A DNA stretch of 64,000 bases, taken from Cenarchaeum sp. (GTDB taxonomy: Archaea; Thermoproteota; Nitrososphaeria; Nitrososphaerales; Nitrosopumilaceae). The DNA lies in assembly GCA_963692915.1 (NCBI GenBank), contig OY843584.1, positions 960,001-1,024,000 on the forward strand. Reading direction: 5' to 3'. Within the stretch, counting starts at the first letter, position 1; each line of letters begins with the position of its first letter. Positions 1,786 to 64,000 of this stretch are shown in pieces. The position numbers and the translations under genes are program-made. The notes under the pieces are model-generated. The model did not search any database. It saw nothing but the letters and a program-made list of their open reading frames with translations, and was not told where the DNA came from.

Positions 1786-1893
1786 GACGCAGGAGCAAAC
1801 AGGGGGCACATTTATGAATTTAGCACATCCACGCCTAGCGCCCCCCACGCTAGGCAAGTTAGAAATAGACGGGGCACGAAGGCGTGGATCATC

Positions 1894-18574: not shown

Positions 18575-18581
18575 ACAGCGC

Positions 18582-23453: not shown

Positions 23454-23530
23454 GCGAAGTTAGTATAGCCTGGTGGTACACCAGCTTCCCAAGCTGGGAG
23501 TCGCGGGTTCGAATCCCGCACTTCGCACCA
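23454..23530 (+). tRNA. tRNA-Gly(CCC), CCA encoded
   Basis: Acceptor stem GCGAAGT/ACTTCGC; anticodon arm CCAGC-TTCCCAA-GCTGG; T arm GCGGG-TTCGAAT-CCCGC; ends ACCA. Confidence 0.96.
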
Positions 23531-39496: not shown

Positions 39497-39533
39497 TAGC
39501 GGGATATTTGCCCCACAGGGGCAATGCCGCAGC

Positions 39534-45970: not shown

Positions 45971-45989
45971 TATCAACGATCTGCGCATG

Positions 45990-46006
45990 TGCGTCTTTAT
46001 TAAACT
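45990..46006 (-). promoter_or_regulatory. TATA-containing promoter, identical to 47866-47882
   Basis: AGTTTAATAAAGACGCA at the same distance from the ATG in both paralogs. Confidence 0.75.
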
Positions 46007-46088
46007 TCGCGGCAAGGCCACGAGAACCGCAAGAGTCACATGCGGCATGAGAGCGCCGGGGCTAGTGACACGGGATTGCATTACGAAG

Positions 46089-47846
46089 CTACCCTACCGG
46101 AAACGAGTCTGGGCACCCGTCCATGTCGTCAAACTTGTTCCATGTCTCGGGCTCATCTGGGCACTCGTCGTGGGCATCACGCAGGCCGTCATTGTCGGTG
46201 TCAGTATGAGCGGGCGAGAGTGTGAGCTCGTCAGGGCAGCCGTCATAATCCATGTATCCATTGCGCGTCTCATCAAGGTCAGGACACACATCAGACGCGT
46301 CGGGCACGCCGTCAAAGTCCGTATCTAGTGGCGGCCGCACGTCTGGGCAGCCGTCAGTGTCAAGGTACTCATTGTATGTCTCGGCGTTCAGCGAGCACTT
46401 GTCAGATATGTCCGGTATGCCATCACCGTCGGCATCGTTGACTTCCGTTGTGGGCGCCGCGTCTGGGCAGCCGTCAGTGTCATCGACCATGTTGAACGTC
46501 TCGATTTGCGAGGGACACTCGTCTACCGAGTCTGGAATGCCATCACCATCGCCATCAGTGACTGATTTCCTGTCTGGGCAGCCGTCAGTGTCGAGTATGC
46601 CATTGAGCGTTTCGGGAACTGACGGGCACAAGTCGAGGCGGTCAGGCAGCCCGTCGCCGTCTGAGTCAGGGTTTTGGTCACGCGAGTCGGCCACAAAGTC
46701 AGGGCAGCCGTCGGAGTCCTCGAACCTGTTGTATGTCTCCGGATCTAGCGGACACTCGTCATCGGTGTCAAGCACACCGTCAGTGTCTGCGTCTCCCACA
46801 ATGGGATCCGAGTCAGGGCAGCCGTCAGTGTCGAGTACGCCGTTTATCGTCTCTGGCGTTATGGGACACGTGTCAACTGCGTCAAATATGCCATCACCAT
46901 CAGAGTCTGGCGTGTCTAGTCCATATTGCGCCACGTCAGGACACCCATCGGTGTCATCGACCATGTTGTAGACTTCGGGAAGCAGAACGCACAGGTCCAT
47001 GCTGTCCAGTATTCCATCAAGATCAGTGTCGGCGATGGTGGAGAGCGTCAACGTGTCAGGGCAGCCGTCAGTGTCAAGATAGCGGTTAAAGTTCTCACGT
47101 TCCTGCGGACAGACATCCTCCGTGTCCGGAATGCTGTCATAGTCGCTGTCGATGGCGCCTCGTGACGTGACGCCGGGCATGTCAGGGCAGCCGTCCCAGT
47201 CAAGGTAGTCGTTGCGGTTCTCGGCCTCGCCGGGGCACTGGTCCCACCTGTCGTCTATGCCGTCGCCGTCGGTGTCCGGAAACTCGTACATTGTGCGCTC
47301 GTCTTTGACATCATCGGGGCAGCCGTCGGCGTCCATGAACCGGTTGTACGTCTCCTGCTCAAAGGGGCACAAGTCGACGCTGTCGGGAACCCCGTCCTCA
47401 TCGTTGTCGGTGATCGGGACATAGTCATCAGGGCAGCCGTCGAGATCGAGCATGCCATTAAAGGTCTCAGGCGACGTAGGACACACGTCGAGTATGTCAA
47501 TTATCCCGTCGCCGTCGGTGTCGACTGTCATCGAGTTGCCAGTGCCCGCAACGGTGTCGGGGCAGCCGTCCTCGTCCATGTACCTGTTATAGTTCTCCTT
47601 GACTGTGGGGCAGCGGTCAAGCCTGTCCTCCACGCCATCGCTGTCCGAGTCATACCACTGGACAAAGTCCGATGGGCAGCCATCGATCTCCCCCTCAAAG
47701 TCCTCTCGCACGTGCGGGCACGCGTCCATCGCGTTGGGCACGCCATCAGAGTCGATGTCAGCATCACCATATTGCGCAAGGGCACCGACCGGAGTGGCGA
47801 CTAGTAGAGTCGAGGCCATTACCATGAGCGCCCAATGACTGCGCAT
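46089..47846 (-). CDS. Secreted thrombospondin type-3-like repeat protein (14 repeats)
   Basis: Signal peptide MRSHWALM...; same repeat unit. Confidence 0.9.
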   Translation of the reverse strand: MRSHWALMVMASTLLVATPVGALAQYGDADIDSDGVPNAMDACPHVREDFEGEIDGCPSDFVQWYDSDSDGVEDRLDRCPTVKENYNRYMDEDGCPDTVAGTGNSMTVDTDGDGIIDILDVCPTSPETFNGMLDLDGCPDDYVPITDNDEDGVPDSVDLCPFEQETYNRFMDADGCPDDVKDERTMYEFPDTDGDGIDDRWDQCPGEAENRNDYLDWDGCPDMPGVTSRGAIDSDYDSIPDTEDVCPQERENFNRYLDTDGCPDTLTLSTIADTDLDGILDSMDLCVLLPEVYNMVDDTDGCPDVAQYGLDTPDSDGDGIFDAVDTCPITPETINGVLDTDGCPDSDPIVGDADTDGVLDTDDECPLDPETYNRFEDSDGCPDFVADSRDQNPDSDGDGLPDRLDLCPSVPETLNGILDTDGCPDRKSVTDGDGDGIPDSVDECPSQIETFNMVDDTDGCPDAAPTTEVNDADGDGIPDISDKCSLNAETYNEYLDTDGCPDVRPPLDTDFDGVPDASDVCPDLDETRNGYMDYDGCPDELTLSPAHTDTDNDGLRDAHDECPDEPETWNKFDDMDGCPDSFPVG

Positions 47847-47865
47847 TACTGCCGATCACGCACTA

Positions 47866-47882
47866 TGCGTCTTTATTAAACT
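47866..47882 (-). promoter_or_regulatory. TATA-containing promoter, identical to 45990-46006
   Basis: 17-bp identity upstream of the second TSP3 paralog. Confidence 0.75.
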
Positions 47883-47955
47883 ACGCGGTGGATCCTAGAT
47901 TGACACGCCGCAGAGATCACGTCCATCATGTGATCGCAGCTTTTGCGCCAGGGTC

Positions 47956-50895
47956 CTATTGACCCGGCAGCGTGTCAGGACAGCCGTCGGCGTCCATGTA
48001 CCTGTTGACCGTCTCGGCCTCAGTCGGGCACGAGTCGACGCTGTCAGGCACGCCGTCGCGATCAGAGTCCGGCGGTCCTGGCGCGTCGGGGCAGCCGTCC
48101 TGGTCACGATCCCCGTCATAGTCTTCGGCATCAGTCGGGCACGAGTCCCGTGCGTCGACGATGCCATCAGAGTCGGTGTCCACAGTGGGTGGGCCGGCCT
48201 GCTCGATGCCGTCGGGGCAGCCGTCCTGGTCTCGTATGAGGTTGAACGTCTCCTCCTGCAGTGGGCACAGGTCGCGTGAGTTCGGTATGCCGTCACCGTC
48301 GGTGTCATCAACCGTAGAGCGCTCATCAGGGCAGCCGTCCTGGTCGTTGATTCCGTTAAACGTCTCAGGCTGCGTTGGGCACCTGTCGACCGAATCAGGC
48401 ACGCCGTCGTCATCCGAGTCCGCAACCCTTCTCTCGTCTAGTACAGAGTCCGGGCAGCCGTCATCGTCCTCAAACCCGTTGTAGCGTTCAGGCTGGAATG
48501 GGCACGTGTCGACGGTGTCCGGAATCCTGTCAAAGTCAGTGTCCTTGGAGGTGATCGACTCGACCGTATCTGGGCAGCCGTCATCGTCCTGGAAGTTGTT
48601 AAAGAGCTCGCGAATGTCAGGGCACTCGTCTATGATGTCCGGTATGCCATCATAGTCGGCATCGTACGTCTTGCGCTCATCAGGGCAGCCGTCAGAGTCA
48701 AGGTAGCGGTTCCACGTCTCGGCCTCGTTGGGACACATGTCGAGCTCGTCGGGCACACCGTCAGAGTCAGAGTCCGGCGCGGGTATCGTGTCGGGGCAGC
48801 CGTCATCGTCCTCATATCCGTTGGTCGTCTCGGCCTCAAGCGGGCACGTGTCTACAAGGTCGTTAAAGCCATCGCCGTCGGCGTCATTGACGCCGCCAAT
48901 GACCACTTCCTCAGGGCACCCATCGGTGTCATTCACAAGGTTGAACGTCTCAGGCTCGTCTGGACACTCGTCAAGCGCGTTGGGCACACCGTCACCGTCT
49001 GTGTCACCCGTGACTCCTCTGTCAGGGCAGCCGTCGTTGTCCATGTAGCCGTTGCGCGTCTCCGGAATTGACGGGCAGAGATCCAGGCGGTCAGGCAGCC
49101 CGTCACCATCCGAGTCTGGGTTTTGGCTTCGCGAGTTGGCCACAAAGTCAGGGCAGCCGTCGGCGTCCTCAAACTGGTTGTACGTCTCGGCCACGCCGGG
49201 GCAAATGTCAGCCGAGTTTGGTATTCCATCGTTGTCAATGTCAATGATTGGGCTGGAGGCCGGAAGCTCGTCGGGGCAGCCATCAGAGTCAATATACCCG
49301 TTTATGGTCTCGGCCTCTTCGGGGCAGAGATCCATGCGGTCAGACAGGCCGTCAGAGTCAGTATCAAATATGGTGATTGCGTCCGGGCAGCCATCAAGGA
49401 CACCGCCTATTCCGTATGTCTCGGCCTGGTCTGGACACGCGTCCATTGCGTCATGTATGCCATCAGAATCCTCATCTGCAAACGGCACGGCATCAGGGCA
49501 GCCGTCAGTGTCCTCAAACCCGTTGAGCGTCTCGGCGGCTAGCGCGCAGCTGTCAGCAATGTCCGGAATTCCATCATTGTCGGCATCGCGTGGGGACATG
49601 ACGGGAACCGCGTCAGGGCAGCCGTCATCGTCATCGATGAGGTTGTATGTCTCAAACTCCGATGGGCATGCATCGACGCTATCCTCTATACCGTCGCCGT
49701 CGGTGTCCAGCTTGAACGTGCTTTTCTTGTCAGGGCACCCGTCAAGCGATCCTCCAGTGGCAGTCTCGGCTTGGTTTGGGCACAGGTCCAAAAAGTCTGC
49801 AATTCCGTCACCATCAGAGTCATGAACAGTGCTCTGCGTCCCGATAAAGTCGGGGCACCCATCATCGTCCATGTGTCTGTTGTACGTCTCGGGTGAGCTG
49901 ACGCACTCGTCATTAGAATCAAGTATCCCGTCAGAGTCTCTGTCGGCGTCAGTTACGTAGGGAGGTATGTCAGGACATCCGTCAGCGTCCTCAAACCCGT
50001 TGTAGCGCTCAGGCTCGTCGGGACACAAGTCCACGTCATCTGCTATGCGATCACCATCAGAGTCTACGCCTATGCGTGAGGATGTTGCGGGTCGCACGTC
50101 AGGACAACCGTCAGAGTCAAGAAATCGGTTGTATGTCTCGGCGTCATCTGGGCATGCGTCGATCTCGTCATGCACGCCGTCACCGTCACCGTCAGGAAGC
50201 GCGTCGGCCTGTGAATCCGGGCACCCGTCGGAGTCCATGAACCCATTGCGCGTCTCGGCTGCAAGTATACACTGGTCATTCACATCGAGAATGCCGTCAC
50301 CGTCAGAGTCTGGAGCCGACGTCGTTACAAACGCGCCGGTGTTCTCGGGGCACCCGTCGGCGTCATCAATCCTGTTGAACGTCTCCTCGGCTAGCGGACA
50401 CTCATCAAGCGAATTGGGTATGCCATCTCCATCAGTGTCATGGTCGCGCTCTGGATCGTCTGGACAACCGTCTGTGTCCATGTACCCGTTGAGCGTCTCG
50501 GGACGCGTTGGGCACGTGTCGATCCCGTCAGGGATGCCATCATTGTCAGAGTCCGCCGGCGTCGTAGGTCCGGCATTGTCGCTAGCGCTGTCAGGGCATC
50601 CGTCAGAGTCGTCTATCCCGTTGTAGACCTCTACGGAGAGTGGGCACTCGTCATCGACATCTGCTATCCCGTCCCGATCCCTGTCATGCCACTGAACCCT
50701 CGTGGACGGACACCCGTCATCGGCGTCACCACGATGATCCTCGGGCAGGTTGGGGCACATGTCTGACGCGTCTGGCACGCCGTCACGGTCAAGATCTGAT
50801 GCGACCTGTGCGTGCGCTGGGAGGTAGGCCGGCGCGCTAGCCATCACGGATAGCAGCAGGATCACGATGCCTAGCCTACGGCGCACTACTGACAT
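47956..50895 (-). CDS. Secreted thrombospondin type-3-like repeat protein (24 repeats)
   Basis: Signal peptide MSVVRRRLGIVILLL...AHA; same repeat unit; AGTTTAATAA upstream. Confidence 0.9.
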   Translation of the reverse strand: MSVVRRRLGIVILLLSVMASAPAYLPAHAQVASDLDRDGVPDASDMCPNLPEDHRGDADDGCPSTRVQWHDRDRDGIADVDDECPLSVEVYNGIDDSDGCPDSASDNAGPTTPADSDNDGIPDGIDTCPTRPETLNGYMDTDGCPDDPERDHDTDGDGIPNSLDECPLAEETFNRIDDADGCPENTGAFVTTSAPDSDGDGILDVNDQCILAAETRNGFMDSDGCPDSQADALPDGDGDGVHDEIDACPDDAETYNRFLDSDGCPDVRPATSSRIGVDSDGDRIADDVDLCPDEPERYNGFEDADGCPDIPPYVTDADRDSDGILDSNDECVSSPETYNRHMDDDGCPDFIGTQSTVHDSDGDGIADFLDLCPNQAETATGGSLDGCPDKKSTFKLDTDGDGIEDSVDACPSEFETYNLIDDDDGCPDAVPVMSPRDADNDGIPDIADSCALAAETLNGFEDTDGCPDAVPFADEDSDGIHDAMDACPDQAETYGIGGVLDGCPDAITIFDTDSDGLSDRMDLCPEEAETINGYIDSDGCPDELPASSPIIDIDNDGIPNSADICPGVAETYNQFEDADGCPDFVANSRSQNPDSDGDGLPDRLDLCPSIPETRNGYMDNDGCPDRGVTGDTDGDGVPNALDECPDEPETFNLVNDTDGCPEEVVIGGVNDADGDGFNDLVDTCPLEAETTNGYEDDDGCPDTIPAPDSDSDGVPDELDMCPNEAETWNRYLDSDGCPDERKTYDADYDGIPDIIDECPDIRELFNNFQDDDGCPDTVESITSKDTDFDRIPDTVDTCPFQPERYNGFEDDDGCPDSVLDERRVADSDDDGVPDSVDRCPTQPETFNGINDQDGCPDERSTVDDTDGDGIPNSRDLCPLQEETFNLIRDQDGCPDGIEQAGPPTVDTDSDGIVDARDSCPTDAEDYDGDRDQDGCPDAPGPPDSDRDGVPDSVDSCPTEAETVNRYMDADGCPDTLPGQ

Positions 50896-53203: not shown

Positions 53204-56200
53204 CTAGCGGCGCTGCGGCGCATAACGCGTGCGAGCACGTCGCACAAGCTCGCCGAGTGCCCACAGTGGGGACACGCCACCGGTGTGCCGCAGGCGCCGC
53301 CAGATCACAAGGGCAGCCATTGTGGCCAGGGCCATGGCCAGCGCGCCAGAATAGTCCTGGCGGTATGACGCGTGAACCTCAGTGTCGCCGCTGGCGACAA
53401 AGCGTGCAATGTTGTCCTCGTGTGTGGCACTGTCCGGAAGGGCATCCCAGCGCTCAAAGACGCTGTATGCAAGGAACGGCACGATCTCTGTGGGCTCGGC
53501 GACGAGCTCGACGCTTGTGCCGTACGCGTGAACGCCGGCGCCAGAGACTCCGCGAGTGGCGCTTACCGTAACGCTGCCCTCATAGACTGCGCGCACGACC
53601 ATGTCGCCGCTAGCCGAAAAGTGGACGCTGTCGCCGCCGTACTCACGGCCGTTGACCGTTGTGCCGGACAGGACGTAGCCCCCGCCGTGCTCGTGCGGAA
53701 ACTGGATCTCGACGGAGGCGATATTCCCGTACTCTCGGCTCCACGGGAGCGCTATTGTGGACTCGGTTGTGCCCGAGTCATGCGCGTGCGCTACAAGGCG
53801 CACGCCCTCAATGGCAAGACGCTCACCGTCTGTTCCGGCCGCCGAGACGTCTAGGAGCGCATACTCTTCGGCAGTGACGTGGATTGTCTCGTGCGAGGGC
53901 TCGTACCCGCGCTTTGATGCGGATATCGTGACCGGGAATGTGCCCGGCACGTCGGCAGTCACGTCTATTGACGGCGAGTCGCCCACTTGTGCCCACGGGA
54001 TTGTGGAGCTCACGTCAATGTCAATGTCATCTGCTGCTGTAATGACATCAATGCGAAACGGCACGCCTGTTCGCGCAGTGGCCGCCGAGGCACGCACATC
54101 AAGGCCAAGCACGTTTGAGAACACGCTGATTGAGCGCTCATGGGCGCCGTGATCCGCCAAGACGGACATTGTGATCTCACCGGCGCGCTGGGCGCTCATG
54201 CGGTGCGTGTCCCAGTACGCCTCAATGCCGCTTGCTGCAATCTCTGTGGAGTCTACAGTTGAGAGGGGCGTGCCAAGTGAGTCGACAAGGTGCATCGCAA
54301 ACGGAAACTCTTCGTGCAGGTGAACGCGCGGGGGGATGTCAAGGGCCACGCCGGCGACAGTGCCCGGAAGCGAGATCTCGGCAGTCCCGCGCCCAAGTCC
54401 CTGTGCCGTAGCGGTGATCGTCGTGCCGACCCCAAGGTCAGCACGAAGACGTGCCGAGTCGTCCACTATCATCAGGGTGCGCTCGACGAGTCCGTCTCCG
54501 GCCACGGTCACCTCCTTTGGGCGCCCAAAGGCCCCGCGTGCGTCAATTAGGGTGCCGTCTGCATCGTGTATGGATACTAGCGCAATGTCCTGCACGCCGC
54601 CGCCCGGCGCTATGCGCAGAGGCTCGATGTGCAGCTCATACTCGCCAGAGTTTGGCGGGATTGCGCTAAAGTTTGCCAGTGACGTCCCGACGTTCGTTGC
54701 AGTAGCCGCGAGCGTATAGTTTCCCACATCATGCGCCACAATCCCATAGCTGGCCGCAAATGATCGAATCGTCCCCTGCGTGAGCTCCACAGTCGCGTCA
54801 TACTCGGTGCCCGGTGGGGATACGGATAGCGACACTCGCCGGCCGTCAACTTCCATCGGGTGTCGCAGTGTAAAACACGCTCCTTCCGCTTCACGGCCGT
54901 CTCCACACGCAATGTCTGCGCTCGTGCCCTCCATCTCTCCAATCGAGGACGCACACGCGCCGCGCGCATCCGTATCATGGTATGGGGAAATCATAATGCT
55001 TGCCGCACCTGAGGTCACAAGCGGATGAACCCATGCTCGTATCGAGTTGACATTGGCGTCCGGACGCGCCGTTGCGCATGCAGCCGGGACAGGCTCAATG
55101 TTGACATCACTCATGGCTGCAAGCCCGCCAAGATCGCCGATATTGTCCAAGTATGCCGAACCGACCACAATCCGGCCAGTCGCCGTCCCGACGTCGGGAA
55201 CCGACACGGTTATTGTGGCCACGCCGGCTCCGCGCGTGTACACGAGTCCGCTTGCCACGCCGTTGCGCATGTAAAGTGCGGCGTGTTCAGAGTTCTCAGA
55301 GGCGACTGGCAAAAACCCCGCCACGGCCGTGTTGTCTGTGTGAACATTCCCAACGAGCACACCGGGATGCGCGTACGGGCGGCCTCCCTCCTCGAGCCAC
55401 GCGTGATACGTTGCATGGCTGCTCTCGCCGGCCGGACTTGGGGCGACTTCCATGCTGATGTCCACGTCGCGCGTAACCTTTGCAATCTCGGCACTGGCCG
55501 ACTCGAGCCCTCCGGTGTGCGCACGAAGCGTGCCGTTGCCGTACACGCGCAGGGCAAACCTGGCGTGAAACTCGTCCTCGGGTATCACGGCCTCAGCGGG
55601 GGACACTAACGCACTGTCTGACTCTAGGCGAACCGTCGTCTCTGCGGGGACGCGAGTCGGCGTGCCGTTGGAATCGAGCGCAAAGACGTACGCCGTGACG
55701 CTGCCTGACATTGTCCTGTTTGAGGCAAGGATCACCTCGAGCCTCGAGGGGACGCTCTTTTGCGAGTATATGCGCGACTCGGCGCTGACTAGGGGGCCGT
55801 TGATCGACGCAAATACGCCCACGGCATCCCTTCCGGCCGCAAGCGGACGCAGCTCAAAGATTGCGTGGTTGTCCCCTGCCTGCACAGTCGCCTCGCGCTC
55901 TACTGCAAGTGCGGCAGGATCACTAGACGTGATGAGTATGCGCGCACCCTGTGCATGCGCGTCCTCGGTCACGACGATGCCCTCGTACGTCCTGCCCTCG
56001 AGCATCGCCGGCGGTATCCACAACGATGCTCGCGCCGGTGCGCTGTCAGCCTGCGCCGCAGTGAGCGCAAACTGTCCGGTCGTGGACAGGTGGCCCTCGG
56101 CCTCGGCATCAACGCGCAGCGTCATTGCTCCAGGTTCAGCAGAGCCCCACTCGATCGCAAACGTGCCGTCATCTAGCGCCGTGGCCTCGCCGCATGTGCA

Positions 56201-56446
56201 GTATGCCCCACCGGGGGCGCCGACGAGCTCTAGGCCAAGCTTTGCGCCGGCGACCGGAGAGCTGCCCGAGACTGCGCTGATGGTCAACGTCTGCGGATCA
56301 GAGCCCACGACATGCGAGCGCGAACCGGCGACTGTCACCGAGAGCGGCAGGTCTGCGCCATCGACCTCGTCCTGCGCGAGTGCCACCGGAGCCACACACA
56401 GGAATGCCACGAGTGCTGCTCGCGCAATGTGTGGCGCCCTAGCCAA
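53204..56446 (-). CDS. Large surface protein (signal peptide, Ig-like beta repeats, C-terminal TM anchor)
   Basis: ALA signal peptide; beta-rich modules; InlB-B-like GAGVHAYGTSVELVA...FERW; TM helix followed by WRRLR. Confidence 0.75.
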   Translation of the reverse strand: MARAPHIARAALVAFLCVAPVALAQDEVDGADLPLSVTVAGSRSHVVGSDPQTLTISAVSGSSPVAGAKLGLELVGAPGGAYCTCGEATALDDGTFAIEWGSAEPGAMTLRVDAEAEGHLSTTGQFALTAAQADSAPARASLWIPPAMLEGRTYEGIVVTEDAHAQGARILITSSDPAALAVEREATVQAGDNHAIFELRPLAAGRDAVGVFASINGPLVSAESRIYSQKSVPSRLEVILASNRTMSGSVTAYVFALDSNGTPTRVPAETTVRLESDSALVSPAEAVIPEDEFHARFALRVYGNGTLRAHTGGLESASAEIAKVTRDVDISMEVAPSPAGESSHATYHAWLEEGGRPYAHPGVLVGNVHTDNTAVAGFLPVASENSEHAALYMRNGVASGLVYTRGAGVATITVSVPDVGTATGRIVVGSAYLDNIGDLGGLAAMSDVNIEPVPAACATARPDANVNSIRAWVHPLVTSGAASIMISPYHDTDARGACASSIGEMEGTSADIACGDGREAEGACFTLRHPMEVDGRRVSLSVSPPGTEYDATVELTQGTIRSFAASYGIVAHDVGNYTLAATATNVGTSLANFSAIPPNSGEYELHIEPLRIAPGGGVQDIALVSIHDADGTLIDARGAFGRPKEVTVAGDGLVERTLMIVDDSARLRADLGVGTTITATAQGLGRGTAEISLPGTVAGVALDIPPRVHLHEEFPFAMHLVDSLGTPLSTVDSTEIAASGIEAYWDTHRMSAQRAGEITMSVLADHGAHERSISVFSNVLGLDVRASAATARTGVPFRIDVITAADDIDIDVSSTIPWAQVGDSPSIDVTADVPGTFPVTISASKRGYEPSHETIHVTAEEYALLDVSAAGTDGERLAIEGVRLVAHAHDSGTTESTIALPWSREYGNIASVEIQFPHEHGGGYVLSGTTVNGREYGGDSVHFSASGDMVVRAVYEGSVTVSATRGVSGAGVHAYGTSVELVAEPTEIVPFLAYSVFERWDALPDSATHEDNIARFVASGDTEVHASYRQDYSGALAMALATMAALVIWRRLRHTGGVSPLWALGELVRRARTRYAPQRR

Positions 56447-59400
56447 TTATTATGCTCCCGCCGTGTATGTTTGCCGTTGCGCTCGCGTCACTTGACACGT
56501 GCGTGCGAATCGTCCCCGTGCCGCACCATGTTCTTCCTTCCGGTGACGGAAATGCGCTCTCGGCGTATATGTTGGCGTGTATGTAAAACTCCACAAAGTC
56601 TCCAGGGCTGACATTGCTGACATTGACCGTGTTGCTGATTGTTGTCCTATCATACGTGAATGTCGTCTTTGTGCTTCCATTTCCGTTGGCCAGTACCTTG
56701 CTAGTCGCCGAGATTTCAGGCGCATAGTTGCTCATGCGCTCGCTTTCATAGACAAGATCGCCATTCCTGTATGCTGCGACCCAGCCCGTTAGTGGATCGC
56801 GCGCGCACCGCGGCATCTGCGACTCCCTGTGCGTGTGCTCAATGTGCGCATGTCCGGACACCGTGCCGCTAACTATGGCAAGTATTGGCCTGTCTGATGT
56901 CGCAATAGTGTATGCTGATGCGCCTGCTGAGGCATCAATGTGATCGATCGGCTGCTCAAAGGAGACGCGTGACACGGTGCTAGTCGAGGACGGAATCACC
57001 CTCACGTTGCTGCCACCGAGCACGTCAGAGTAGCGCAAGACCGCATCAACACCGTTTACCTTCATGTGTATGGAAAAGTATCCCGGCACCACCGGAACCC
57101 ACATGCGACCCTCGTCATCCTCGCTTGCCGAATACTCGCCGTCAAGGTACTCAAGGCGCATGGCCGTGCCATCCCTTGCGCGAACCTCAACGTCGCTGAC
57201 AGTCACGCTGCCGGCCACGGGTATCTGGGCCCATGTGTGAACCGTGTAGATGTGATCCTCTGGCGTCGCGATCCTCATGCTCTTGCCGGCTCGCGGGTCA
57301 AAGATGATCGTGCTAAAGCTTCCGCGATACGACGCAGCGTCCGGATACGTGTGTAGCGTGAATGACTCTGGCATGGACTCGATGAACGGAATCGTGCCAT
57401 GCTTTGTGGTAAATCCGAAATGGAGCGTCTTGCCGTCGATCGCAAACCTGTATGGGACAGAGGGCGCCAGGCCCACAATGCCCTCATCTGAGACGGCATC
57501 AAGCGTGACTGTCGAGCCGCGGGTATGAACCAACGCGTAGAGGTTCCGCGCATAGACACTGTCACGCTCTGGCATCTCCACCCTGTGCGCAGCAGAGTCC
57601 GAGGAGATGACGGTATCCACGACGTATTGCCGCTCGGCAATGACACAGAGCGTGTCGCCCCACGTGAATATGGCAGTGCTTTGCGCCCAGGAGGTCTGTG
57701 GGTGGCGCTCGATTGACGTGCTGTTGGAGCTCTTTGTGGTCAGCGTGTTGAACTTTATTCCCGCCAGGCTAGCATAGTCGTCATTTCCTCCCGTGCCCTC
57801 GGTAAACATCATGGACGGCACACCATAATGCGTGTGAACCTTCCTGAGAAAATAATCAGACGAGGGGTTATTTAGCGCAAAGCGCTCCTCGCCCGAGTTG
57901 GACGCAATGGCGTGTGCAGGTGCCGTAATGTAGACGTCAGGGTAGGACGTGGCATAGCGCTCAAAGGCATAGCCGATCGGGGTGCCATAGGAAAAGCGCT
58001 TGTTAGTCAAGGTCAATGGCTCATCAAGCGTGACGCCGGAATTCGCAATGATGTTGTCACTGCCCTTTTGGATCACGTGCATACGCGATTCGAGCGTGGG
58101 CTCATACGCCACATGGAACCGTGCGCCGTCACGCAGCAGCAGTCCAGTGCCCGGAAAGGCCATGGATGTCGAATTGTGCTGAATCTCGTACTGTCCCGGA
58201 TGCTCATAGTATGGAAACTGTGTGCCAAGGAGTGGGAGGCTATATCGATGATCCTCGGGATGCGATATGTCGTGTGAGTGTGCGCGCGAGTACGGGTGCG
58301 ATGCGGGGAGATGGTGGCTAAAACCCCAGTATTCGGCGTGCAGCTCTCTCATCGGCGTCGCGCTCTCCTTGGAGTACGTAATAGTGTCCTTGGAGATGCT
58401 TGATGTGGGCAGCGTTCCCGCATAGATCAAAGAGTTTTCTGGCTTGTTGACGTCAATGATCCATCCTGTCGAAATTGCGATCGGAGATTCTTTAAGGTGA
58501 TCTTTTGGATTGGCCTTCCACGCGAGTCCACCACATTGCCCCTTTAGCTGCGCAATGCTTATCGTGTCAGCAAGCGTGGCGTACGGGGACGTGAGTATCT
58601 CCACGCTTCCACCGCCAAGTGTGGCGTTGAAGAGCAGCGTCTTGCCAAGCATTGCCGAGTCGAGCTTTAGGAGCGCGCTCTGGCCGCCTGAGACGGTCGT
58701 GGTTCCCCCCTCCGAGCTCACCGTGGCGCTCCCGCGCGAGGCAGTATAGGAGGCGAGATCCGGCTTTGTGGTGTTCCTCGCCGTGCCGTCTGGCGCAACG
58801 GTGATGAGCGCCTTGCTCGAGTATCCCGATATTGCAGTCGATGTCCTTGTGTCCGAGTCAAGCAGGAGCGACGCAAAGTTCGGCGCGGCCTCTGTTGCGT
58901 CCACGTCCACTTCAATATGCGGCCTGAGCGAGGCTATGTTGATCCACGTGTCCGAGCCGTATATGACGTGGCCAGAGTGCTCGGCCTGCTCGAGTCGGCT
59001 TCCAATGCCCATGCCGCTCACCGTCTCCCTTGCGGGGTTTGCCGGGCCTGACGTGTCGATCTCGGCGCCAAACGTGTTGCCCATGCGTGTAACGGCGACA
59101 ATTGAGACGCTGCCGTTCACGTCCTCAGGCACGTCATAGCCGATGCTCGCCTCGCCAAATCCCGCAAGCGGCATCCGGCCGGCAAACTCGGGCAGGCGCG
59201 CGACTGTCCCGTTTTGGAGCATCGACCTGACCTCGATGATCTCCACGGGATCGGCGCGCTCGTTGCTGACATGAACCGTGTATGACCGGCCGTCGCCTCC
59301 CGTCACTCCAACGCCGAGGCTCTCGTGAACCGCGCGTCTCTGCGAGTCAGCCGCGTCGGCTGCGCGCCTATTGTACTCGTCGACGCCCTCGAGGTGCGCA

Positions 59401-59492
59401 TGGAGGAGCGCCATCGAGGCGCCCATCACCGCAAAGACGATGATGGCCGCCAGGATCGCGCCCACTACCGGCCACACCCCTGGGCTGCCCAC
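56439..59492 (-). CDS. Giant pilin/archaellin-like protein (class III-like N-terminus fused to a large extracellular region)
   Basis: G-VWPVVGAILAAIIV, ESLGV, VSN..ADPVEIIEV, VAVTRMGNTF typical of archaeal pilin/FlaF-G domains. Confidence 0.65.
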   Translation of the reverse strand: MGSPGVWPVVGAILAAIIVFAVMGASMALLHAHLEGVDEYNRRAADAADSQRRAVHESLGVGVTGGDGRSYTVHVSNERADPVEIIEVRSMLQNGTVARLPEFAGRMPLAGFGEASIGYDVPEDVNGSVSIVAVTRMGNTFGAEIDTSGPANPARETVSGMGIGSRLEQAEHSGHVIYGSDTWINIASLRPHIEVDVDATEAAPNFASLLLDSDTRTSTAISGYSSKALITVAPDGTARNTTKPDLASYTASRGSATVSSEGGTTTVSGGQSALLKLDSAMLGKTLLFNATLGGGSVEILTSPYATLADTISIAQLKGQCGGLAWKANPKDHLKESPIAISTGWIIDVNKPENSLIYAGTLPTSSISKDTITYSKESATPMRELHAEYWGFSHHLPASHPYSRAHSHDISHPEDHRYSLPLLGTQFPYYEHPGQYEIQHNSTSMAFPGTGLLLRDGARFHVAYEPTLESRMHVIQKGSDNIIANSGVTLDEPLTLTNKRFSYGTPIGYAFERYATSYPDVYITAPAHAIASNSGEERFALNNPSSDYFLRKVHTHYGVPSMMFTEGTGGNDDYASLAGIKFNTLTTKSSNSTSIERHPQTSWAQSTAIFTWGDTLCVIAERQYVVDTVISSDSAAHRVEMPERDSVYARNLYALVHTRGSTVTLDAVSDEGIVGLAPSVPYRFAIDGKTLHFGFTTKHGTIPFIESMPESFTLHTYPDAASYRGSFSTIIFDPRAGKSMRIATPEDHIYTVHTWAQIPVAGSVTVSDVEVRARDGTAMRLEYLDGEYSASEDDEGRMWVPVVPGYFSIHMKVNGVDAVLRYSDVLGGSNVRVIPSSTSTVSRVSFEQPIDHIDASAGASAYTIATSDRPILAIVSGTVSGHAHIEHTHRESQMPRCARDPLTGWVAAYRNGDLVYESERMSNYAPEISATSKVLANGNGSTKTTFTYDRTTISNTVNVSNVSPGDFVEFYIHANIYAESAFPSPEGRTWCGTGTIRTHVSSDASATANIHGGSIIIG

Positions 59493-60874
59493 GCGTGCAG
59501 GGCAAACTCGGAGCTAGCGCACTGCGACTCGTCGAGCTCGGCCCCGCCCGAGTCCACAAGGAGCGCGTTTACCGGCGCGTCCGGAGCGCAATAGACGGCG
59601 CCCGTTGGCCTGCCCCCATGGTCAATTGGCATCATGTCATCAATGTCCACCGTTGCCCACGAACCGGGCGCACACTCGGAGAGCAGGAGGGCATCTGCTG
59701 CGTCATGTGCGCCTTCTGCCATGCGCACAAGCGAGAGGCGCGTCTCGGTTCCGTTAATGCCAATCATGCCTGCCCCCGCCGAGGTGACTATGCCGCGATA
59801 GCACGTCTCCTTGAAAAGGCTGCCCGAGCAGAGACTGTCATCATGCAAGTCGTTCAAGTCATGCAAGTCGTTCAAGTCGCGCAAGTTGTGCAAGTTGCTC
59901 AAGTCGTGCAAGTCATCATGCGGAACCTGCGTGTCGGCCCATGAGCCCCGCAGGGAATTGTCGAGAAGCGCACTCGAGCAGAGCTCTGCAATGCTTTGTG
60001 CGCCATCGGCGTCCCCGCACACGCTAGACAGCATGGCTGCCGCACCGGCCGGATCAGAGGCCACAAGGCGCTCAGTTGCGGACATGTCATCCAGAAGGCG
60101 CTCCGCAGGCGGGTCTGCTGCGCCACTGCCTTCCGTAGAATGCCCAAGGAGGTCAAGCTCAAAGAGCAGGCGCGAGCTAGGCCCGAGCTGCCTGTGAACT
60201 GTCGCATCGAGTGGAAACGGAAACCCGTCAAGTATCGTGATGCGCGTGCTAGGGGTGTCCGGATACCCCACGTATGCCACCTCGACGTCCTCCCCGCCGA
60301 CTGTGGCCATGTCCATCGCAATCACGTGCAGCGCACCATCACCGTCTCCCCACCTTGCGCCGACCTCTAGATCCCGCGGTGTTCTGCTGTTCGCGTGCGC
60401 ATCAATCCAAAAGAGCGTCTCGCGCAGGACCGAGACCATGACGCCATGCTGCGCATCAGCAGACACGTCAAGCCTGCCCCCTGCGCCGATTCGCAGTATT
60501 GCGTCCTGCCAGGCAGGCTCGTGGTCTCCGGTAACGCCAAACCTGGCCTGCACGACCCACACGGGGCCATGCCACTCCTCGAGCATGCCGATAAACTCGA
60601 GCTCGGCTGTGACGCACTCGGAGCCGACTGAGGGCAGCGTGTGGGCCACGCACATCCTGTACGCAAACGAGTCTAGCGCGCTGAGGCCTTCGCCAAGGTG
60701 CCATGTTGGCACCCCGGCGTCGGACGCTGCGTTGGCCGTGGCATCAGGCGGCGACGGAGCCGGTGCGAGTGCGACTAGCGCGAGTATCCAGGCATACCCC
60801 ACAAGGCGGTCAAAACCATGTCGGATTGCCGACTGCGCCAGTGCCTGCACCACACTCTTCATTCTGCCGACCAC
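59465..60874 (-). CDS. Secreted protein with C-terminal degenerate thermonuclease (SNase-like) domain
   Basis: TRLSLV...CAPGSWATVDIDD...DHGGR..GAVYC....VNALLVDSG......C..SEF...WA. Confidence 0.65.
   Translation of the reverse strand: MVGRMKSVVQALAQSAIRHGFDRLVGYAWILALVALAPAPSPPDATANAASDAGVPTWHLGEGLSALDSFAYRMCVAHTLPSVGSECVTAELEFIGMLEEWHGPVWVVQARFGVTGDHEPAWQDAILRIGAGGRLDVSADAQHGVMVSVLRETLFWIDAHANSRTPRDLEVGARWGDGDGALHVIAMDMATVGGEDVEVAYVGYPDTPSTRITILDGFPFPLDATVHRQLGPSSRLLFELDLLGHSTEGSGAADPPAERLLDDMSATERLVASDPAGAAAMLSSVCGDADGAQSIAELCSSALLDNSLRGSWADTQVPHDDLHDLSNLHNLRDLNDLHDLNDLHDDSLCSGSLFKETCYRGIVTSAGAGMIGINGTETRLSLVRMAEGAHDAADALLLSECAPGSWATVDIDDMMPIDHGGRPTGAVYCAPDAPVNALLVDSGGAELDESQCASSEFALHAWAAQGCGR
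59844..59915 (-). repeat. 9-bp coding tandem repeat x8 (xLx units, D/N-L-H/N/R/S)
   Basis: TGCAAGTCG/TTCAAGTCA-type units encoding DLHDLSNLHNLRDLNDLHDLNDLH. Confidence 0.85.
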
Positions 60875-60928
60875 ACCATAGCACGCGTGGGACTCACGTG
60901 AATTTTGAATAAAAGGCGCGCAGCGGCC

Positions 60929-63400
60929 CTATGAAACGCTGATCATGCGCGCAAGGCGATGCGCGATGCGCCATGCCACGAGGGCAGCGACTGCCACGAT
61001 GAACGCCAAGAGTACCGCATCGACATCAACGTCAAGGCCGTCTGTGGCATCAGGGAGCCCCACGCCCACCGTCGCGCTAGCGGTTCCCCCCCACACGTTT
61101 GTGAGCATCACCGTGTTCGCAATTCCCTGGATCGCAGACACCGTGCAGCCATGTATCGACGAGCACACGCGCTCCATGGGCACGCCGTTGCGCTCGACTG
61201 ATGCGATATCGCCAAACGCCTCGCGTGGGCGCGCCTGCAGCGTCGTGTGCGCGCACGAGGGGCACGAGACCGCATAGTCCATCGCGTTGTCCGTGGCGAC
61301 GTTGGCGATCTCGAGGATCGGCGTCGTAAAGAGGACCTCGGCAGTCATGTTGCGCGAGTGGGCAGCCGTGCCGTCGGTGACACCGTAGGAGAACTCGTAT
61401 GCCGATGGGGCCTCGTATATCGTGTTTGAGCCAAGCTCGGCGACGCTGTCGGCCATCAGCGCATACACGTCAGTAAAAGAGACGCCGGTTCGATTCAGGA
61501 TATAGTCCACACGCCCACCACCAGTCGATTCGGCTGCCATCTTGCGCGGATACATGTCCGAGACGACCATGTTGGCGATCTCGGCGTCATCGGCCTCGAG
61601 CTCGACACTCTCACATATGCGGTCATGCAGGTATGACGGTCCCACAGTTGCGGCAAACGCGCCGACTCCAACAGTTGGGACTATCTTGACGGATGCGCTG
61701 CCGTCGGCGACCGGACCGCTGCCGTCGACCATGACAAGGCTTGCCGGAACGGCAAAGCGTGCACGCGGGTACGTATAGTCGTACGAGACCAGGTCGCGCA
61801 GCTCGTGACCGGCAAAGTCCTCGGTTCGCACCGTGTTGCGCAGGCTCGCAACGTCTGCACCGCTCTCTGCCATGAATGCCGATATCGGATACTCCATGTA
61901 GAGGCGCCCGTATGCGGCCTGTGTGAACATTGCCGAGGCCGCATGCCTCCCAAGCCGGAGCGCGCCGTCGATGAGGCTCGCATCATGCACGGTGCAGCGT
62001 TCGGCATCGTGCGCAGACGGGCCGGCCGTCGCGTTCCATGCCAGGCTCGCATCAAGGGGGATCGAGCCTGTCAGGTAGCGTGCCGTGCCCTCGTGGTCCA
62101 TCTCGTTGAGCAGCGCGCGGCGCATCTCGTGCGGGCCGGCATCCGCATCATCCCTTCCGCCCCCCAGGGATCCATCATACCTCACTGCCATGACGTGCCT
62201 CTTTGACCATGCCCAGTCGCCATGCTCGGGAACCGAATCGGCCAGCGAGACGTACGCGTAGGGCTCGCCGAACTGTGGGTCATACCTCACTATGAGCGGC
62301 TCGATGGACTCGGTGACGTCGTGTGCGCGCGCCTCGCCCGTGCGCACGCGCGCATGAGCGTGGATGTTGTGGAGCGTTGCGGTGTAGTCGATCTCGTGGC
62401 GCTCGTGGTATCGGGCGCACGCCGGCTCGGCAGCACCGTGCGCCGTGCCTACCGCACACGACGAGTTGTACACGGCCGAGCCGCCCGTGTAAGAGTGCGC
62501 GATCGCCTGCGCGTCATACCCGCCAATTCCCCCCGCGGCCAGGACACATGAGGACTCGTCACAGTCAAGCTCCTGCACCAGCTCAAGGATTCCGTGGTTC
62601 TTTGTGTGAGTGGCATAGATCGTCCCAATGCGCTCCTCCTTCCACGCATAGTCGATCTCGTGTACCACGTTTATAGGATCCCACACATAGTACGTCCCAT
62701 CAAGGTTTGCCGCCGTGTGGCCCGCCGAGTCTGTGAGCGGCTCGTATGAGAGGCTCACCGAGAGGCCTGGATCGATCACGCGTGCCGGAAATGCCGACTC
62801 GGAGACAAACGCGTGGTACCCCGTGTACAGGTGGCCTCCTAGCATGACTATGACCTTTGCCATCACATGCGCCTTTTTTGCCACGCGGTACGACTCGTCA
62901 GGCCCATAGATGTCGTGCGGCAGCACCACGCTGCCCTCCTCGCTGCGCGGCCCGCTGCCGCCGTATCCCTCGAATCCCGACGGTTGGCATCCCCCACGGC
63001 GGCTATAGGAGCACTTTACCTTGAGCGGCGTGCACTCACCACCGCCTCCCGGAACCTCCACGGGGCACACCTTTACGGCGCTGCACCCCTCGACGCGCAT
63101 GTTGGTGTGGTATCCGAGCGCGTCGCCCGGATAGAACGTGCGGTCGGGGTTGTTTCTCCTGTGGCCGTTGTGGAGCACGGGCGTCACCGCGAGCTCTGTG
63201 TGAACCTTGCACTTTTCGCGAAGGTACATGTAAAGCTTTGAGCTATGGTACACCTGATCGCTTCCGGCCGTGTTTTTTTGCGTGGAGAGGGCACCATCTG
63301 TGTCGTGCCTGGCGTCAGCCTCCCCCATTGCCGCCGACATTGCAAGTGCTGCGGCAAGTGCCATTGTGAGTGACAGGAACGCCAGGGGCGCGCCAGTCAT
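60929..63400 (-). CDS. Large surface protein with signal peptide and C-terminal TM anchor
   Basis: ADA signal peptide; Cys-rich N-terminal region; C-terminal LLAFIVAVAALVAWR; coupled to the pilin stop (ATGA). Confidence 0.75.
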   Translation of the reverse strand: MTGAPLAFLSLTMALAAALAMSAAMGEADARHDTDGALSTQKNTAGSDQVYHSSKLYMYLREKCKVHTELAVTPVLHNGHRRNNPDRTFYPGDALGYHTNMRVEGCSAVKVCPVEVPGGGGECTPLKVKCSYSRRGGCQPSGFEGYGGSGPRSEEGSVVLPHDIYGPDESYRVAKKAHVMAKVIVMLGGHLYTGYHAFVSESAFPARVIDPGLSVSLSYEPLTDSAGHTAANLDGTYYVWDPINVVHEIDYAWKEERIGTIYATHTKNHGILELVQELDCDESSCVLAAGGIGGYDAQAIAHSYTGGSAVYNSSCAVGTAHGAAEPACARYHERHEIDYTATLHNIHAHARVRTGEARAHDVTESIEPLIVRYDPQFGEPYAYVSLADSVPEHGDWAWSKRHVMAVRYDGSLGGGRDDADAGPHEMRRALLNEMDHEGTARYLTGSIPLDASLAWNATAGPSAHDAERCTVHDASLIDGALRLGRHAASAMFTQAAYGRLYMEYPISAFMAESGADVASLRNTVRTEDFAGHELRDLVSYDYTYPRARFAVPASLVMVDGSGPVADGSASVKIVPTVGVGAFAATVGPSYLHDRICESVELEADDAEIANMVVSDMYPRKMAAESTGGGRVDYILNRTGVSFTDVYALMADSVAELGSNTIYEAPSAYEFSYGVTDGTAAHSRNMTAEVLFTTPILEIANVATDNAMDYAVSCPSCAHTTLQARPREAFGDIASVERNGVPMERVCSSIHGCTVSAIQGIANTVMLTNVWGGTASATVGVGLPDATDGLDVDVDAVLLAFIVAVAALVAWRIAHRLARMISVS

Positions 63401-63888
63401 GGCTTGCCCACCAGCCGCATAACGTTGCCAGGTCCGGTGACCAGGAGTATTCCCACATCCTCGCCATCATGGCCGTCTCCAAGTGTCGGACTAAAGCGCA
63501 TGTCAGTTATCTCGCCGGCTGGCAGCGTGCATGCGCCAACGTGATCCTGTGTGGTGATCTTTTGCATCGTAGAGCATCCGGCATCTGAGACGACCGTGTC
63601 AGCATACACATAGTGGATCCCGGCAATCTCAATGTCCGCATCGCCGGCGTTGACGATCTCGATCCTAGCAGTCCACGCCGACGGTGAGGCGGCCTCTGGC
63701 GCACTTGAGTGTATGACGCGCAGCGACTCGCCGAGCCGCGAGATCTTTTGCCGTATGAGCGACTCGCCTGCCTCGCCGGCCGAGTCGAGTCCCTCGCCCA
63801 CAAAGTGAAGGAGTGCGGCACCGGCTGCAGACACGATGCCAAAGAGCATGGCAAACCCGATAATTTCTGAGGCGAGGCGGGCACGCAT
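63397..63888 (-). CDS. Archaeal pilin-like (FlaF/FlaG-like) protein
   Basis: MRARLA-SEIIGFAMLFGIV class III-like N-terminus, ESLRVI, IVNAGDADIEI, LVT..GN; GAGGTG upstream. Confidence 0.7.
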   Translation of the reverse strand: MRARLASEIIGFAMLFGIVSAAGAALLHFVGEGLDSAGEAGESLIRQKISRLGESLRVIHSSAPEAASPSAWTARIEIVNAGDADIEIAGIHYVYADTVVSDAGCSTMQKITTQDHVGACTLPAGEITDMRFSPTLGDGHDGEDVGILLVTGPGNVMRLVGKP

Positions 63889-63892
63889 GCTC

Positions 63893-64000
63893 TCACCTCG
63901 CGAGGACTCCCACGGTCATCACGATTGAGCCGCCAGAGAGCGGCTCGGCGAAGACCGAGATCGCATACCTTGCGGATGGGGTCACAGACAGGGCGTGAAC
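63893..64000 (-). CDS. C-terminal end of an upstream gene, possibly another pilin (partial)
   Basis: Open frame VHALSVTPSARYAISVFAEPLSGGSIVMTVGVLAR* ending 4 bp before the next ATG. Confidence 0.5.
   Translation of the reverse strand, partial: VHALSVTPSARYAISVFAEPLSGGSIVMTVGVLAR

Follow-up and report, generated by a model that had tools for sequence, protein, structure and literature searches.

A chromosomal gene cluster of Cenarchaeum sp. that combines type IV pilus and VirB4-type genes and encodes a giant modular pilin

We analysed a 64,000-nucleotide (nt) stretch of the genome of Cenarchaeum sp. (contig OY843584.1, here G000:C1, positions 960001–1024000), which we call the window and whose positions are used below unless stated otherwise, together with the adjoining segment L001 (genome positions 1023001–1040000), which extends past the window end. 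Six genes at the end of the window form the distal half of a set that spans about 25 kb of the chromosome and encodes a FlaI-type and a VirB4-type ATPase, a probable TadC-like platform, a homolog of the A24 prepilin peptidases, a 1017-amino-acid (aa) protein with a pilin fold, a small protein related to it, two membrane-anchored proteins and a protein with a staphylococcal nuclease (SNase) fold. We read this locus, at somewhat better than an even chance, as a machine that joins type IV pilus parts to a VirB4, conjugation-type apparatus and that would bring cells of the same species into contact and then let them exchange DNA; cell contact is its likely role, while movement of DNA by the machine is reasoned from the VirB4-type ATPase and the precedent of the Ced importer. 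What is new is a family of giant modular pilins that had no annotation, together with two conserved partner proteins that are membrane-anchored, on a chromosomal, selection-maintained variant of a known module. The source genome (G000) is a single contig of 1.645 Mb (59.4% G+C (GC), 99.86% complete) from a mesophilic ammonia oxidiser.

A description of this DNA made earlier from its letters (the sequence-only reading) had reported at least six co-oriented genes, and open reading frame (ORF) calls and translations place all six on the minus strand, where it had put them (Table 1). They are tightly packed: the 163- and 823-aa genes overlap by 4 nt, the 469- and 1017-aa genes by 28 nt and the 1017- and 1080-aa genes by 8 nt, with gaps of 4 nt between the 166- and 163-aa genes and 54 nt between the 823- and 469-aa genes. 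Hydrophobic N-termini are found in the 163-, 166-, 823-, 1017- and 1080-aa proteins. None of the five proteins complete in the window has a significant family match in Pfam, NCBIfam or PHROGs, and a bacterial promoter and terminator scan, a method not applicable to archaea, returned counts at the level of shuffled sequence.

The AlphaFold2 (AF2) model of the 1017-aa protein, built from a 60-member alignment, has a mean predicted local distance difference test score (pLDDT) of 80.8 and a predicted template modelling score (pTM) of 0.70. In this model a long helix (residues 7–55) leads into a beta sandwich (residues 59–146) and the remainder is almost wholly beta, which gives an architecture of a pilin module followed by a beta-rich passenger of about 870 residues. 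Foldseek matched the model to the type IV pilus subunit of Pyrobaculum calidifontis, 8fk7_A (E 1.7e-5, probability 1.00, template modelling score (TM-score) on target 0.65); the rows ranked above it were giant multi-Ig proteins with TM-scores below 0.1 and are uninformative. Alignment with VIA-align placed 132 of the 136 residues of 8fk7_A on residues 13–148 of the model, with a Z score of 10.1 and a root-mean-square deviation of 3.5, which makes this pilus the closest match. Archaellins likewise cover both helix and sandwich (5tfy_I, Z 8.9, 141 residues aligned; 9eq7_A, Z 8.6, 140 aligned), while generic Ig-like matches and FlaF/FlaG (Z 9.1–9.6) span only residues 55–150. Because the pilus subunit and archaellin matches run over helix and sandwich together, the pilin head that had been proposed for this protein holds up: in the model, the N-terminus is a complete archaeal type IV pilin fold.

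This protein is not an isolated case. A search of 1.84 billion representative proteins (representatives of clusters at 50% identity) returned 99 matches at E ≤ 0.001, 37 of them at E ≤ 1e-30. What the members have in common is roughly the last 350 residues. A pilin-like head of 110–140 residues closed by a hairpin with the motif VTxxGNxF is present in 21 of the 99 members. Another 31 carry a classical signal peptide in place of the pilin module and start at the module's last hairpin, which hints that strand complementation may allow cargo proteins to be inserted into pilin subunits. When 54 of the 60 aligned proteins were scanned against Pfam (the query and five others being left out), 51 had no family, two contained a P_proprotein insert and one gave a weak, sub-threshold beta-propeller match. 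Archaeal modular pilins of the kind defined by the 1017-aa protein thus make up a sizeable family that lacks annotation.

Two small proteins accompany the giant one. The 163-aa protein, which has only six homologs in the large database, consists of a hydrophobic helix (residues 9–27) and a domain that ends in the hairpin motif LVTGPGNVM, the same hairpin motif as in the heads of the giant pilins; its N-terminus also gives a weak match to Pfam DUF7289 (E 0.0039). Compared by hhalign, its family profile matches the N-module profile of the 1017-aa family with E 5.2e-5 and a probability of 67% over 89 columns. We find moderate support here for regarding it as a probable stand-alone copy of the pilin module, so that its earlier description as a pilin stands in part, as a relationship to the giant-pilin head drawn from profile comparison. 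Shallow profile–profile comparisons among the three pilin-like proteins were not significant, and only the deeper N-module profile made the link to the 163-aa protein. The 166-aa protein has an N-terminal hydrophobic helix followed by a cysteine-rich, beta-rich remainder, and hhalign gave no significant profile link between it and the other pilin-like genes.

The sequence-only reading had supposed that the assembly ATPase would lie beyond the window, and the adjacent sequence contains two ATPases, one of the FlaI type and one of the VirB4 type. The gene for the latter (636 aa) lies 6 nt upstream of the 166-aa gene, in the same operon. Its product has intact Walker A and B motifs and matches the Pfam families TraG P-loop (4.2e-15) and AAA_10 (2.6e-13) as well as VirB4-like NCBIfam models (4.4e-27 to 8.6e-18, all below the equivalog cut-offs); the best PDB match is VirB4 of 4ag5 (8.2e-10). 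Against the CedB model it scored 6e-8, or 31.8 bits where the cut-off is 700, over about 70 residues (513–581), and the VirB4 models scored far better. The FlaI-type gene (521 aa) follows 24 nt beyond the VirB4-type gene. Its product matches T2SSE (5.8e-27), the FlaI model (2.1e-59, below the equivalog cut-off), BasE (6e-57) and, in the PDB, FlaI 4ii7 (3.6e-48), has an intact Walker A motif (GVTSSGKT) and is the only ATPase of the FlaI/GspE family in the genome besides one of a KH-domain type.

Farther upstream come a 377-aa orphan, a 546-aa protein with about seven transmembrane segments, a plastocyanin-like gene, a 145-aa protein with four transmembrane segments, a conserved 114-aa protein forming a two-segment transmembrane hairpin and then a 227-aa protein with a single transmembrane segment. 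The 377-, 546-, 114-, 145- and 227-aa proteins have no significant family in Pfam, NCBIfam or PHROGs. Family profiles searched against the PDB gave no match for the 546-aa protein and three irrelevant ones for the 114-aa protein, and PDB searches with the single sequences of the 114-, 163- and 469-aa proteins gave no relevant match. The VirB4-type ATPase, the seven-segment protein and the hairpin protein are conserved together. From its topology and position the 546-aa protein is a putative occupant of the VirB6 position, and the 114-aa protein is, on the same grounds, a VirB2/VirB3-like candidate. The plastocyanin-like copper protein (619 aa, L001:8925–10784, plus strand), encoded between the genes of the 546-aa and 145-aa membrane proteins, is found in the same place in the congener G001.

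A candidate for the pilus platform and one for the peptidase lie outside the operon. Encoded on the opposite strand 8 kb upstream, a 711-aa polytopic protein gives two weak T2SSF matches (14.9 and 13.7 bits, both below the cut-off). We read it, with some reserve, as a probable TadC/FlaJ-type platform, because its orthologs score better (E 3e-5 in G003, 3e-4 in G004 and 0.0019 in G002) and because two-domain homologs lie within the related loci of G022, G017 and G019, that of G022 reaching 26.2 bits, above the cut-off. For the peptidase, the Pfam model PF01478 alone matched nothing anywhere in G000. It gave weak matches (22–24 bits) in two congeners, G003 and G002, the matching ORF sharing a contig with the cluster in the latter; this ORF has an ortholog with 65–68% identity in the window (Table 1). 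When the three-sequence ortholog group was compared by hhalign with the canonical peptidases of four relatives, the match extended over 198 columns with a probability of 97.6% and E 4.8e-12, and the two Asp motifs fell in register; on the strength of this profile match, G000 encodes a divergent A24 (GxGD) prepilin peptidase homolog.

Two large proteins of the operon are C-terminally anchored surface proteins. The 823-aa protein begins with a signal-like segment and is anchored in the membrane near its C-terminus (residues 791–809), with no family match and no usable match in the ESM Atlas; its homologs adjoin VirB4 in G022 and G032. In the 1080-aa protein the translation shows a signal peptide and a C-terminal hydrophobic stretch followed by a basic tail, and its homolog in G022 adjoins the 1017-like gene, as it does in G000. 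The 'Ig-like' label once attached to the 1080-aa protein found no confirmation: Pfam, NCBIfam and PHROG searches were blank, and the ESM Atlas match was to an unnamed Nitrososphaerota cluster (score 0.79).

The 469-aa protein had been taken for a secreted, degenerate nuclease. Its N-terminal hydrophobic, signal-like segment indicates that it is secreted or N-terminally anchored, and it is restricted to the genus, with six homologs in 5.8 billion clusters (39–54% identity). Its model has a mean pLDDT of 49 and is confident only at the C-terminus (residues 356–469, pLDDT about 88), where all 50 Foldseek matches listed were staphylococcal nucleases (best E 2.2e-5, TM-score on target 0.53–0.66, 19–25% identity). 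A profile of the family matched thermonuclease entries in 54 of 54 cases in the PDB, although no single match was significant (best E 0.076). The D-T-P-E segment of the enzyme falls, in the HMMER alignment, on columns such as RMAE, QAGP, RAEP and RPDS. The columns that we take to hold the catalytic and metal-binding Asp, Glu and Arg are poorly kept, the first Asp column being acidic in none of ten sequences and the Glu and later Arg columns retained in two of ten (G000 and G001 only). An SNase fold with an unconserved catalytic set makes 'degenerate nuclease' a fair label by sequence comparison, although some activity may remain in the G000 strain. The further idea that a surface nuclease signals DNA handling fared less well: the fold is there, and the protein, being genus-restricted, is not part of the conserved core, so that it is weak evidence on this point.

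To place the cluster among its relatives, tblastn and blastp searches of four congeners (G001–G004) were used, and the gene order proved the same in all four as far as the contigs extend. Intact orthologs of the 166-, 163-, 823- and 469-aa genes occur in all four, as does the VirB4 gene (76–98% identity). Complete 1017- and 1080-aa orthologs are present in G001 and G002; the loci of G003 and G004 are interrupted by contig ends, and whole-genome searches found the C-domain of the 1017-aa protein and the 1080-aa protein in all four congeners. In G001 and G002 the cluster is bounded by Bud32, Ham1 and Tyw1, as in G000, with 62–98% protein identity. Ratios of nonsynonymous to synonymous substitution (dN/dS, Nei–Gojobori) were 0.05–0.15 for the ATPases and 0.15–0.55 for the pilins and surface proteins, compared with 0.12–0.22 for the flanking Bud32 and Ham1, and they stay in the range of these flanking housekeeping genes even at dS > 1. 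All genes of the cluster are under purifying selection and are real genes, not chance ORFs. The integrase family PF00589 had no match in the whole of G000, while the control was found in 14 of 14 genomes. No tRNA gene lies in L001–L002 (the nearest are at window position 23454 and L003:10304; direct repeats were not searched), and the GC content of the cluster equals that of the genome, with no compositional contrast. Conservation at the same site, the missing integrase and tRNA, the genome-like GC and purifying selection together argue against both a mobile element and a decaying remnant.

The set extends beyond the genus. Among 41 genomes including G000, searched at E ≤ 0.001, the VirB4-like protein was found in 15, the C-domain of the 1017-aa protein in nine, the 1080-aa protein in 11 and the 823-aa protein in 10. 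Within the family, all four markers occur together in the same eight genomes (G001–G004, G011, G017, G019 and G022) and are missing from the other 16, save for one weak 1080-aa match in G023; since relatives are not independent samples, this co-occurrence is to be taken as a pattern without statistical weight. Four further genera keep the same gene set. In G022 the order is 1080-like, 1017-like, TadC-like, 823-like, a small gene, VirB4 and FlaI, and the set sits among ordinary genes (an ammonium transporter, a V-ATPase subunit and thymidylate kinase). Homologs of the 546- and 377-aa proteins lie beside VirB4 in G032 and G011. The 59% GC of G000 is atypical for the family, and low-GC relatives with an ammonium transporter also have related loci.

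Table 1. Features of the gene cluster and of the peptidase homolog, in window positions
Feature	Position	Strand	Basis or remark
225-aa divergent prepilin (class III signal) peptidase homolog	40298–40975	+	12 kb downstream of cluster
1080-aa protein	53204–56446	-	ORF call
1017-aa protein	56439–59492	-	ORF call
Conserved C-terminal domain of 1017-aa protein, about residues 650–1017	56439–57545	-	Top-scoring stretch in nearly all 99 matches
Pilin module of 1017-aa protein, residues 1–148, last hairpin VAVTRMGNTF	59049–59492	-	AF2 model and structure comparison
469-aa protein	59465–60874	-	ORF call
SNase-fold domain, residues 356–469 of 469-aa protein	59465–59809	-	Model, Foldseek and PDB profile
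9/27-nt tandem repeat (DLHDLN-type peptide repeat) inside 469-aa gene	59844–59916		Several-fold longer in G001 (98%-related)
823-aa protein	60929–63400	-	ORF call
163-aa protein	63397–63888	-	ORF call
166-aa gene	63893–64393 (window-equivalent; L001:893–1393)	-	63893–64000 inside window; the partial ORF is its 3' end

Several neighbouring genes deserve mention in their own right. Between the cluster and the peptidase homolog, three tandem genes (43184–50895, minus strand) encode secreted proteins with thrombospondin type 3 repeats (965, 585 and 979 aa), which are conserved in G002. Orphan genes flank the peptidase homolog (37563–40313 and 40697–41983), among them a 374-aa ORF at 38372–39496 with a weak ParB-like PHROG match (E 0.004) and a 428-aa ORF with a HEISH zinc-protease-like motif, both conserved in G003. 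The ORF at 37563–38372 had looked TFIIB-like by eye; this was rejected, as PF00382 gave no support, and ParB_N had no match at 38372–39496. Elsewhere in the genome (G000:C1:1304700–1307830) a distance of 2.4 kb separates a TFIIB gene from a ParB_N gene, a pair of the kind described as a signature of thaumarchaeal integrative-conjugative elements (ICEs). An operon for DNA-end resection (NurA-HerA-Mre11-Rad50) occupies 29695–35802 on the plus strand. Restriction-modification genes occur on both sides: an MvaI/BcnI-type restriction endonuclease with an N6/N4 DNA methylase at 17837–19904 (minus strand), in a low-GC stretch (0.43 against 0.59 for the genome), and, some 20 kb upstream of the cluster, a pair of neighbouring N6_N4 DNA methylases (L002:3841–5532) together with a 1343-aa Big_5 surface protein (L002:5958–9989). 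A second low-GC stretch (0.41) covers window positions 1–2000.

We propose that the parts could work together as follows. Driven by the FlaI/TadC motor, the giant pilin and its small pilin-like companions would join by their N-terminal helices to build a short pilus or pseudopilus. The beta-rich, fast-evolving passenger would thereby be exposed on the cell surface, where it would serve in recognition or adhesion. The VirB4-type ATPase, the 546-aa protein in the VirB6 position and the 114-aa hairpin protein would form the translocon, around which the 823- and 1080-aa anchored proteins may span or decorate the envelope, and the SNase-like domain might bind nucleic acid without cutting it. The whole would then be a one-locus analogue of the Ups pilus and Ced importer of the Sulfolobales, with a probable origin in the conjugation module of a thaumarchaeal ICE that was later domesticated. 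DNA uptake, mating and host adhesion had all been suggested for this envelope machine; parts of a pilus and of a VirB4 apparatus are indeed present, and any of the three may be its role. A more specific version, which we consider rather doubtful in its full form, is that of a domesticated, conjugation-derived machine in which a single operon provides the functions of both Ups and Ced, the giant pilins and anchored proteins recognising conspecifics and the VirB4 translocon exchanging chromosomal DNA.

Several observations weigh against the interpretation as a pilus–VirB4 hybrid. A class III signal peptide has a short charged leader with a small residue before the cleavage site, and, judged by this rule rather than by a program, orthologs do not keep such a leader: in G004 a stop codon lies close upstream and the giant pilin begins right at the helix, several 166-aa orthologs begin with MTAMVS, directly at the hydrophobic helix, and most pilin-headed members of the family begin only 1–5 residues before it. 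The pilin-like proteins may therefore stay anchored in the membrane like FlaF/FlaG, without polymerising and never entering a filament. The locus was found to contain no VirD4-type coupling ATPase. A solitary 845-aa VirD4/TraG-like ATPase gene (TrwB_AAD_bind 1e-9, TraG-D_C) lies 390 kb from the cluster (G000:C1:635597–638131; L029:79–2616), and it occurs in 11 of the 41 genomes, in a pattern unlike that of VirB4. The VirB6-like and VirB2/VirB3-like roles are putative, being assigned by topology and position, and the SNase-like protein, confined to the genus and with a degenerate active site, is weak evidence. A TFIIB–ParB pair was not detected at the locus (PF00382 and PF02195 match only elsewhere in G000), and descent from an ICE is therefore argued from shared parts.

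The strongest competitor is a pilus for adhesion or biofilm formation only: the FlaI/TadC machine would build it, the giant pilin and anchored proteins would tip or decorate it and attach the cell to surfaces, particles or a host, and VirB4 would have been co-opted as a second ATPase for assembly or extraction, with nothing translocated. We think this unlikely, yet it must be taken seriously. Here and below, papers PMC7554672, PMC4027160, PMC12857230, PMC9905601, PMC11868833, PMC5797428 and PMC4858521, and the work on Streptococcus sanguinis PilB, are cited for the available part of their text. Bacterial modular pilins with grafted adhesive modules are known (S. sanguinis PilB), several 'adhesion-like' type IV pili have been reported in ammonia-oxidising archaea (PMC7554672), and three surface proteins with thrombospondin repeats are encoded nearby. 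The extracellular proteins also evolve much faster than the motors: compared with G004, the ATPases are 70–75% identical and the 469-, 163-, 166-, 823- and 377-aa proteins 38–52%. The missing VirD4 fits such a pilus as well. Against it stands VirB4 itself, which by established knowledge marks an apparatus of type IV secretion or DNA transfer in every described system (PMC4027160), and which is conserved here in company with the seven-segment protein and the hairpin protein. Moreover, the system is also found in low-GC relatives, in ordinary chromosomal contexts, and is therefore not tied to one lifestyle.

Secretion of proteins is an improbable alternative. On this account the VirB4 translocon would deliver effectors, such as the 469-aa protein, to neighbouring cells or a host, and the pilus would establish the contact. 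Bacterial type IV secretion systems have repeatedly switched from DNA to protein substrates (PMC12857230), and the operon does contain a genus-specific protein with an SNase fold. However, this protein has a signal-like segment of its own at the N-terminus and therefore needs no type IV secretion system, the locus holds no recognisable effector or coupling protein, and the archaeal VirB4 systems studied so far move DNA (PMC9905601).

More improbable still is that an integrated conjugative element is decaying here and has lost its function. An integrase is missing from the genome and a coupling ATPase from the locus, most of the proteins have no family, and parts are scattered among housekeeping genes, the peptidase lying at a distance of 12 kb and the TadC-like gene 8 kb upstream. 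Yet all genes are intact in every examined congener locus that is not interrupted by a contig end, dN/dS (0.05–0.55) lies in the range of the housekeeping flanks, the ATPase motifs are intact and the set recurs in four further genera. That it is a currently mobile ICE is scarcely credible: the part list matches thaumarchaeal ICE modules and restriction-modification genes lie 20 kb upstream, but in both G001 and G002 the cluster is found at an unchanged position with unchanged housekeeping neighbours, and it has no integrase, flanking tRNA or compositional contrast.

Cumulatively, we favour the pilus–VirB4 hybrid. Few microbes on Earth are as abundant as ammonia-oxidising archaea, and we know of no experimental work on their DNA exchange or their attachment to partners. 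For both activities, a machine with VirB4 and pilus parts that is passed on vertically would be a concrete candidate, and the confident model of the 1017-aa protein can guide experiments. If the interpretation is true, conjugation machinery would have become a cellular organelle a second time, independently of Ced/Ted.

Among known systems, the FlaF/FlaG archaellum stator (PDB 5tug, 5tuh) resembles the giant pilin in its uncleaved N-terminal membrane helix and pilin-like sandwich (Z 9.1–9.6 to the 1017-aa sandwich). No archaellum genes accompany the locus, however, and the 1017-aa model matches the long helix of filament subunits, with 132–141 residues aligned as against about 90. Surveys of archaeal pili describe a FlaI/BasE-like ATPase with a TadC-like partner, as here (PMC7554672; Makarova et al. 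2016, PMC4858521), and in ammonia-oxidising archaea they count four pilus types and report 'adhesion-like' pili of unknown function (Abby et al. 2020, PMC7554672). A VirB4 partner, a giant pilin and the anchored trio do not appear in the available text of these surveys, their figures and supplements aside. Our literature search on pilin and VirB4 in Nitrosopumil* and ammonia-oxidising archaea found no further paper on the gene set, although supplements and figures may hold annotations.

As in bacterial modular pilins such as S. sanguinis PilB, an N-terminal pilin module would display a bulky functional module. Unlike PilB as described in the available sources, the pilin module is archaeal (archaellin/Aap-like), the passenger is an all-beta structure of about 870 residues and the leader is unconserved; and, again unlike the bacterial modular pilins, about one third of the family (31 of 99) swaps the pilin module for a signal peptide.

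The Ced and Ted systems of Sulfolobales and Thermoproteales share with the locus a chromosomal, non-mobile VirB4-family ATPase and, judged by topology, a polytopic partner and small hairpin membrane proteins, and neither includes VirD4 or a relaxase (Beltran et al. 2023, PMC9905601). The Ced DNA importer works together with Ups pili, and Ced/Ted in general cooperate with a type IV pilus that mediates species-specific contact (PMC9905601; PMC11868833). By topology the counterparts of CedA/CedA1/TedC would be the 546-aa protein (about seven transmembrane segments) and the 114-aa protein (two-segment hairpin), neither of which has a sequence or profile match to the solved structures. In contrast to Ced/Ted, the pilus and VirB4 genes stand here in one operon, the ATPase scores as VirB4 and not as CedB, there is no demonstrated VirB2-like pilin, and the organism is a mesophilic ammonia oxidiser.

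The nearest relative is the conjugation module of thaumarchaeal ICEs, which consists of VirB4, FlaI, TadC, a prepilin peptidase and pilins without a relaxase (Krupovic et al. 2019, PMC6563490). The sequence-only reading had called the envelope machine uncharacterised, a label that now holds only in part, because a module of this composition has been described at the level of gene content (PMC6563490). Abby et al. (2018, PMC5797428) likewise found a VirB4–pilus module on thaumarchaeal ICEs and proposed that an integrase-less element was 'immobilized' and vertically inherited. The present locus has in common with the ICE module the VirB4-type and FlaI-type ATPases, a prepilin peptidase homolog and pilins, with a probable TadC-like protein and a polytopic candidate for the VirB6 position, and a relaxase is found in neither. 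It differs from the ICEs in having no integrase, att site, tRNA target or replication module (within the searches made, which did not extend to direct repeats) and no VirD4 or detectable TFIIB–ParB pair, in being fixed among housekeeping genes throughout the genus, and in possessing the conserved surface trio of 823, 1017 and 1080 aa, which goes unmentioned in the available text of the ICE descriptions (PMC6563490, section 12; PMC5797428), their supplementary annotations aside. Thus, the locus is closest to the pilus and VirB4 module of the thaumarchaeal ICEs, of which it looks like a fixed chromosomal variant.

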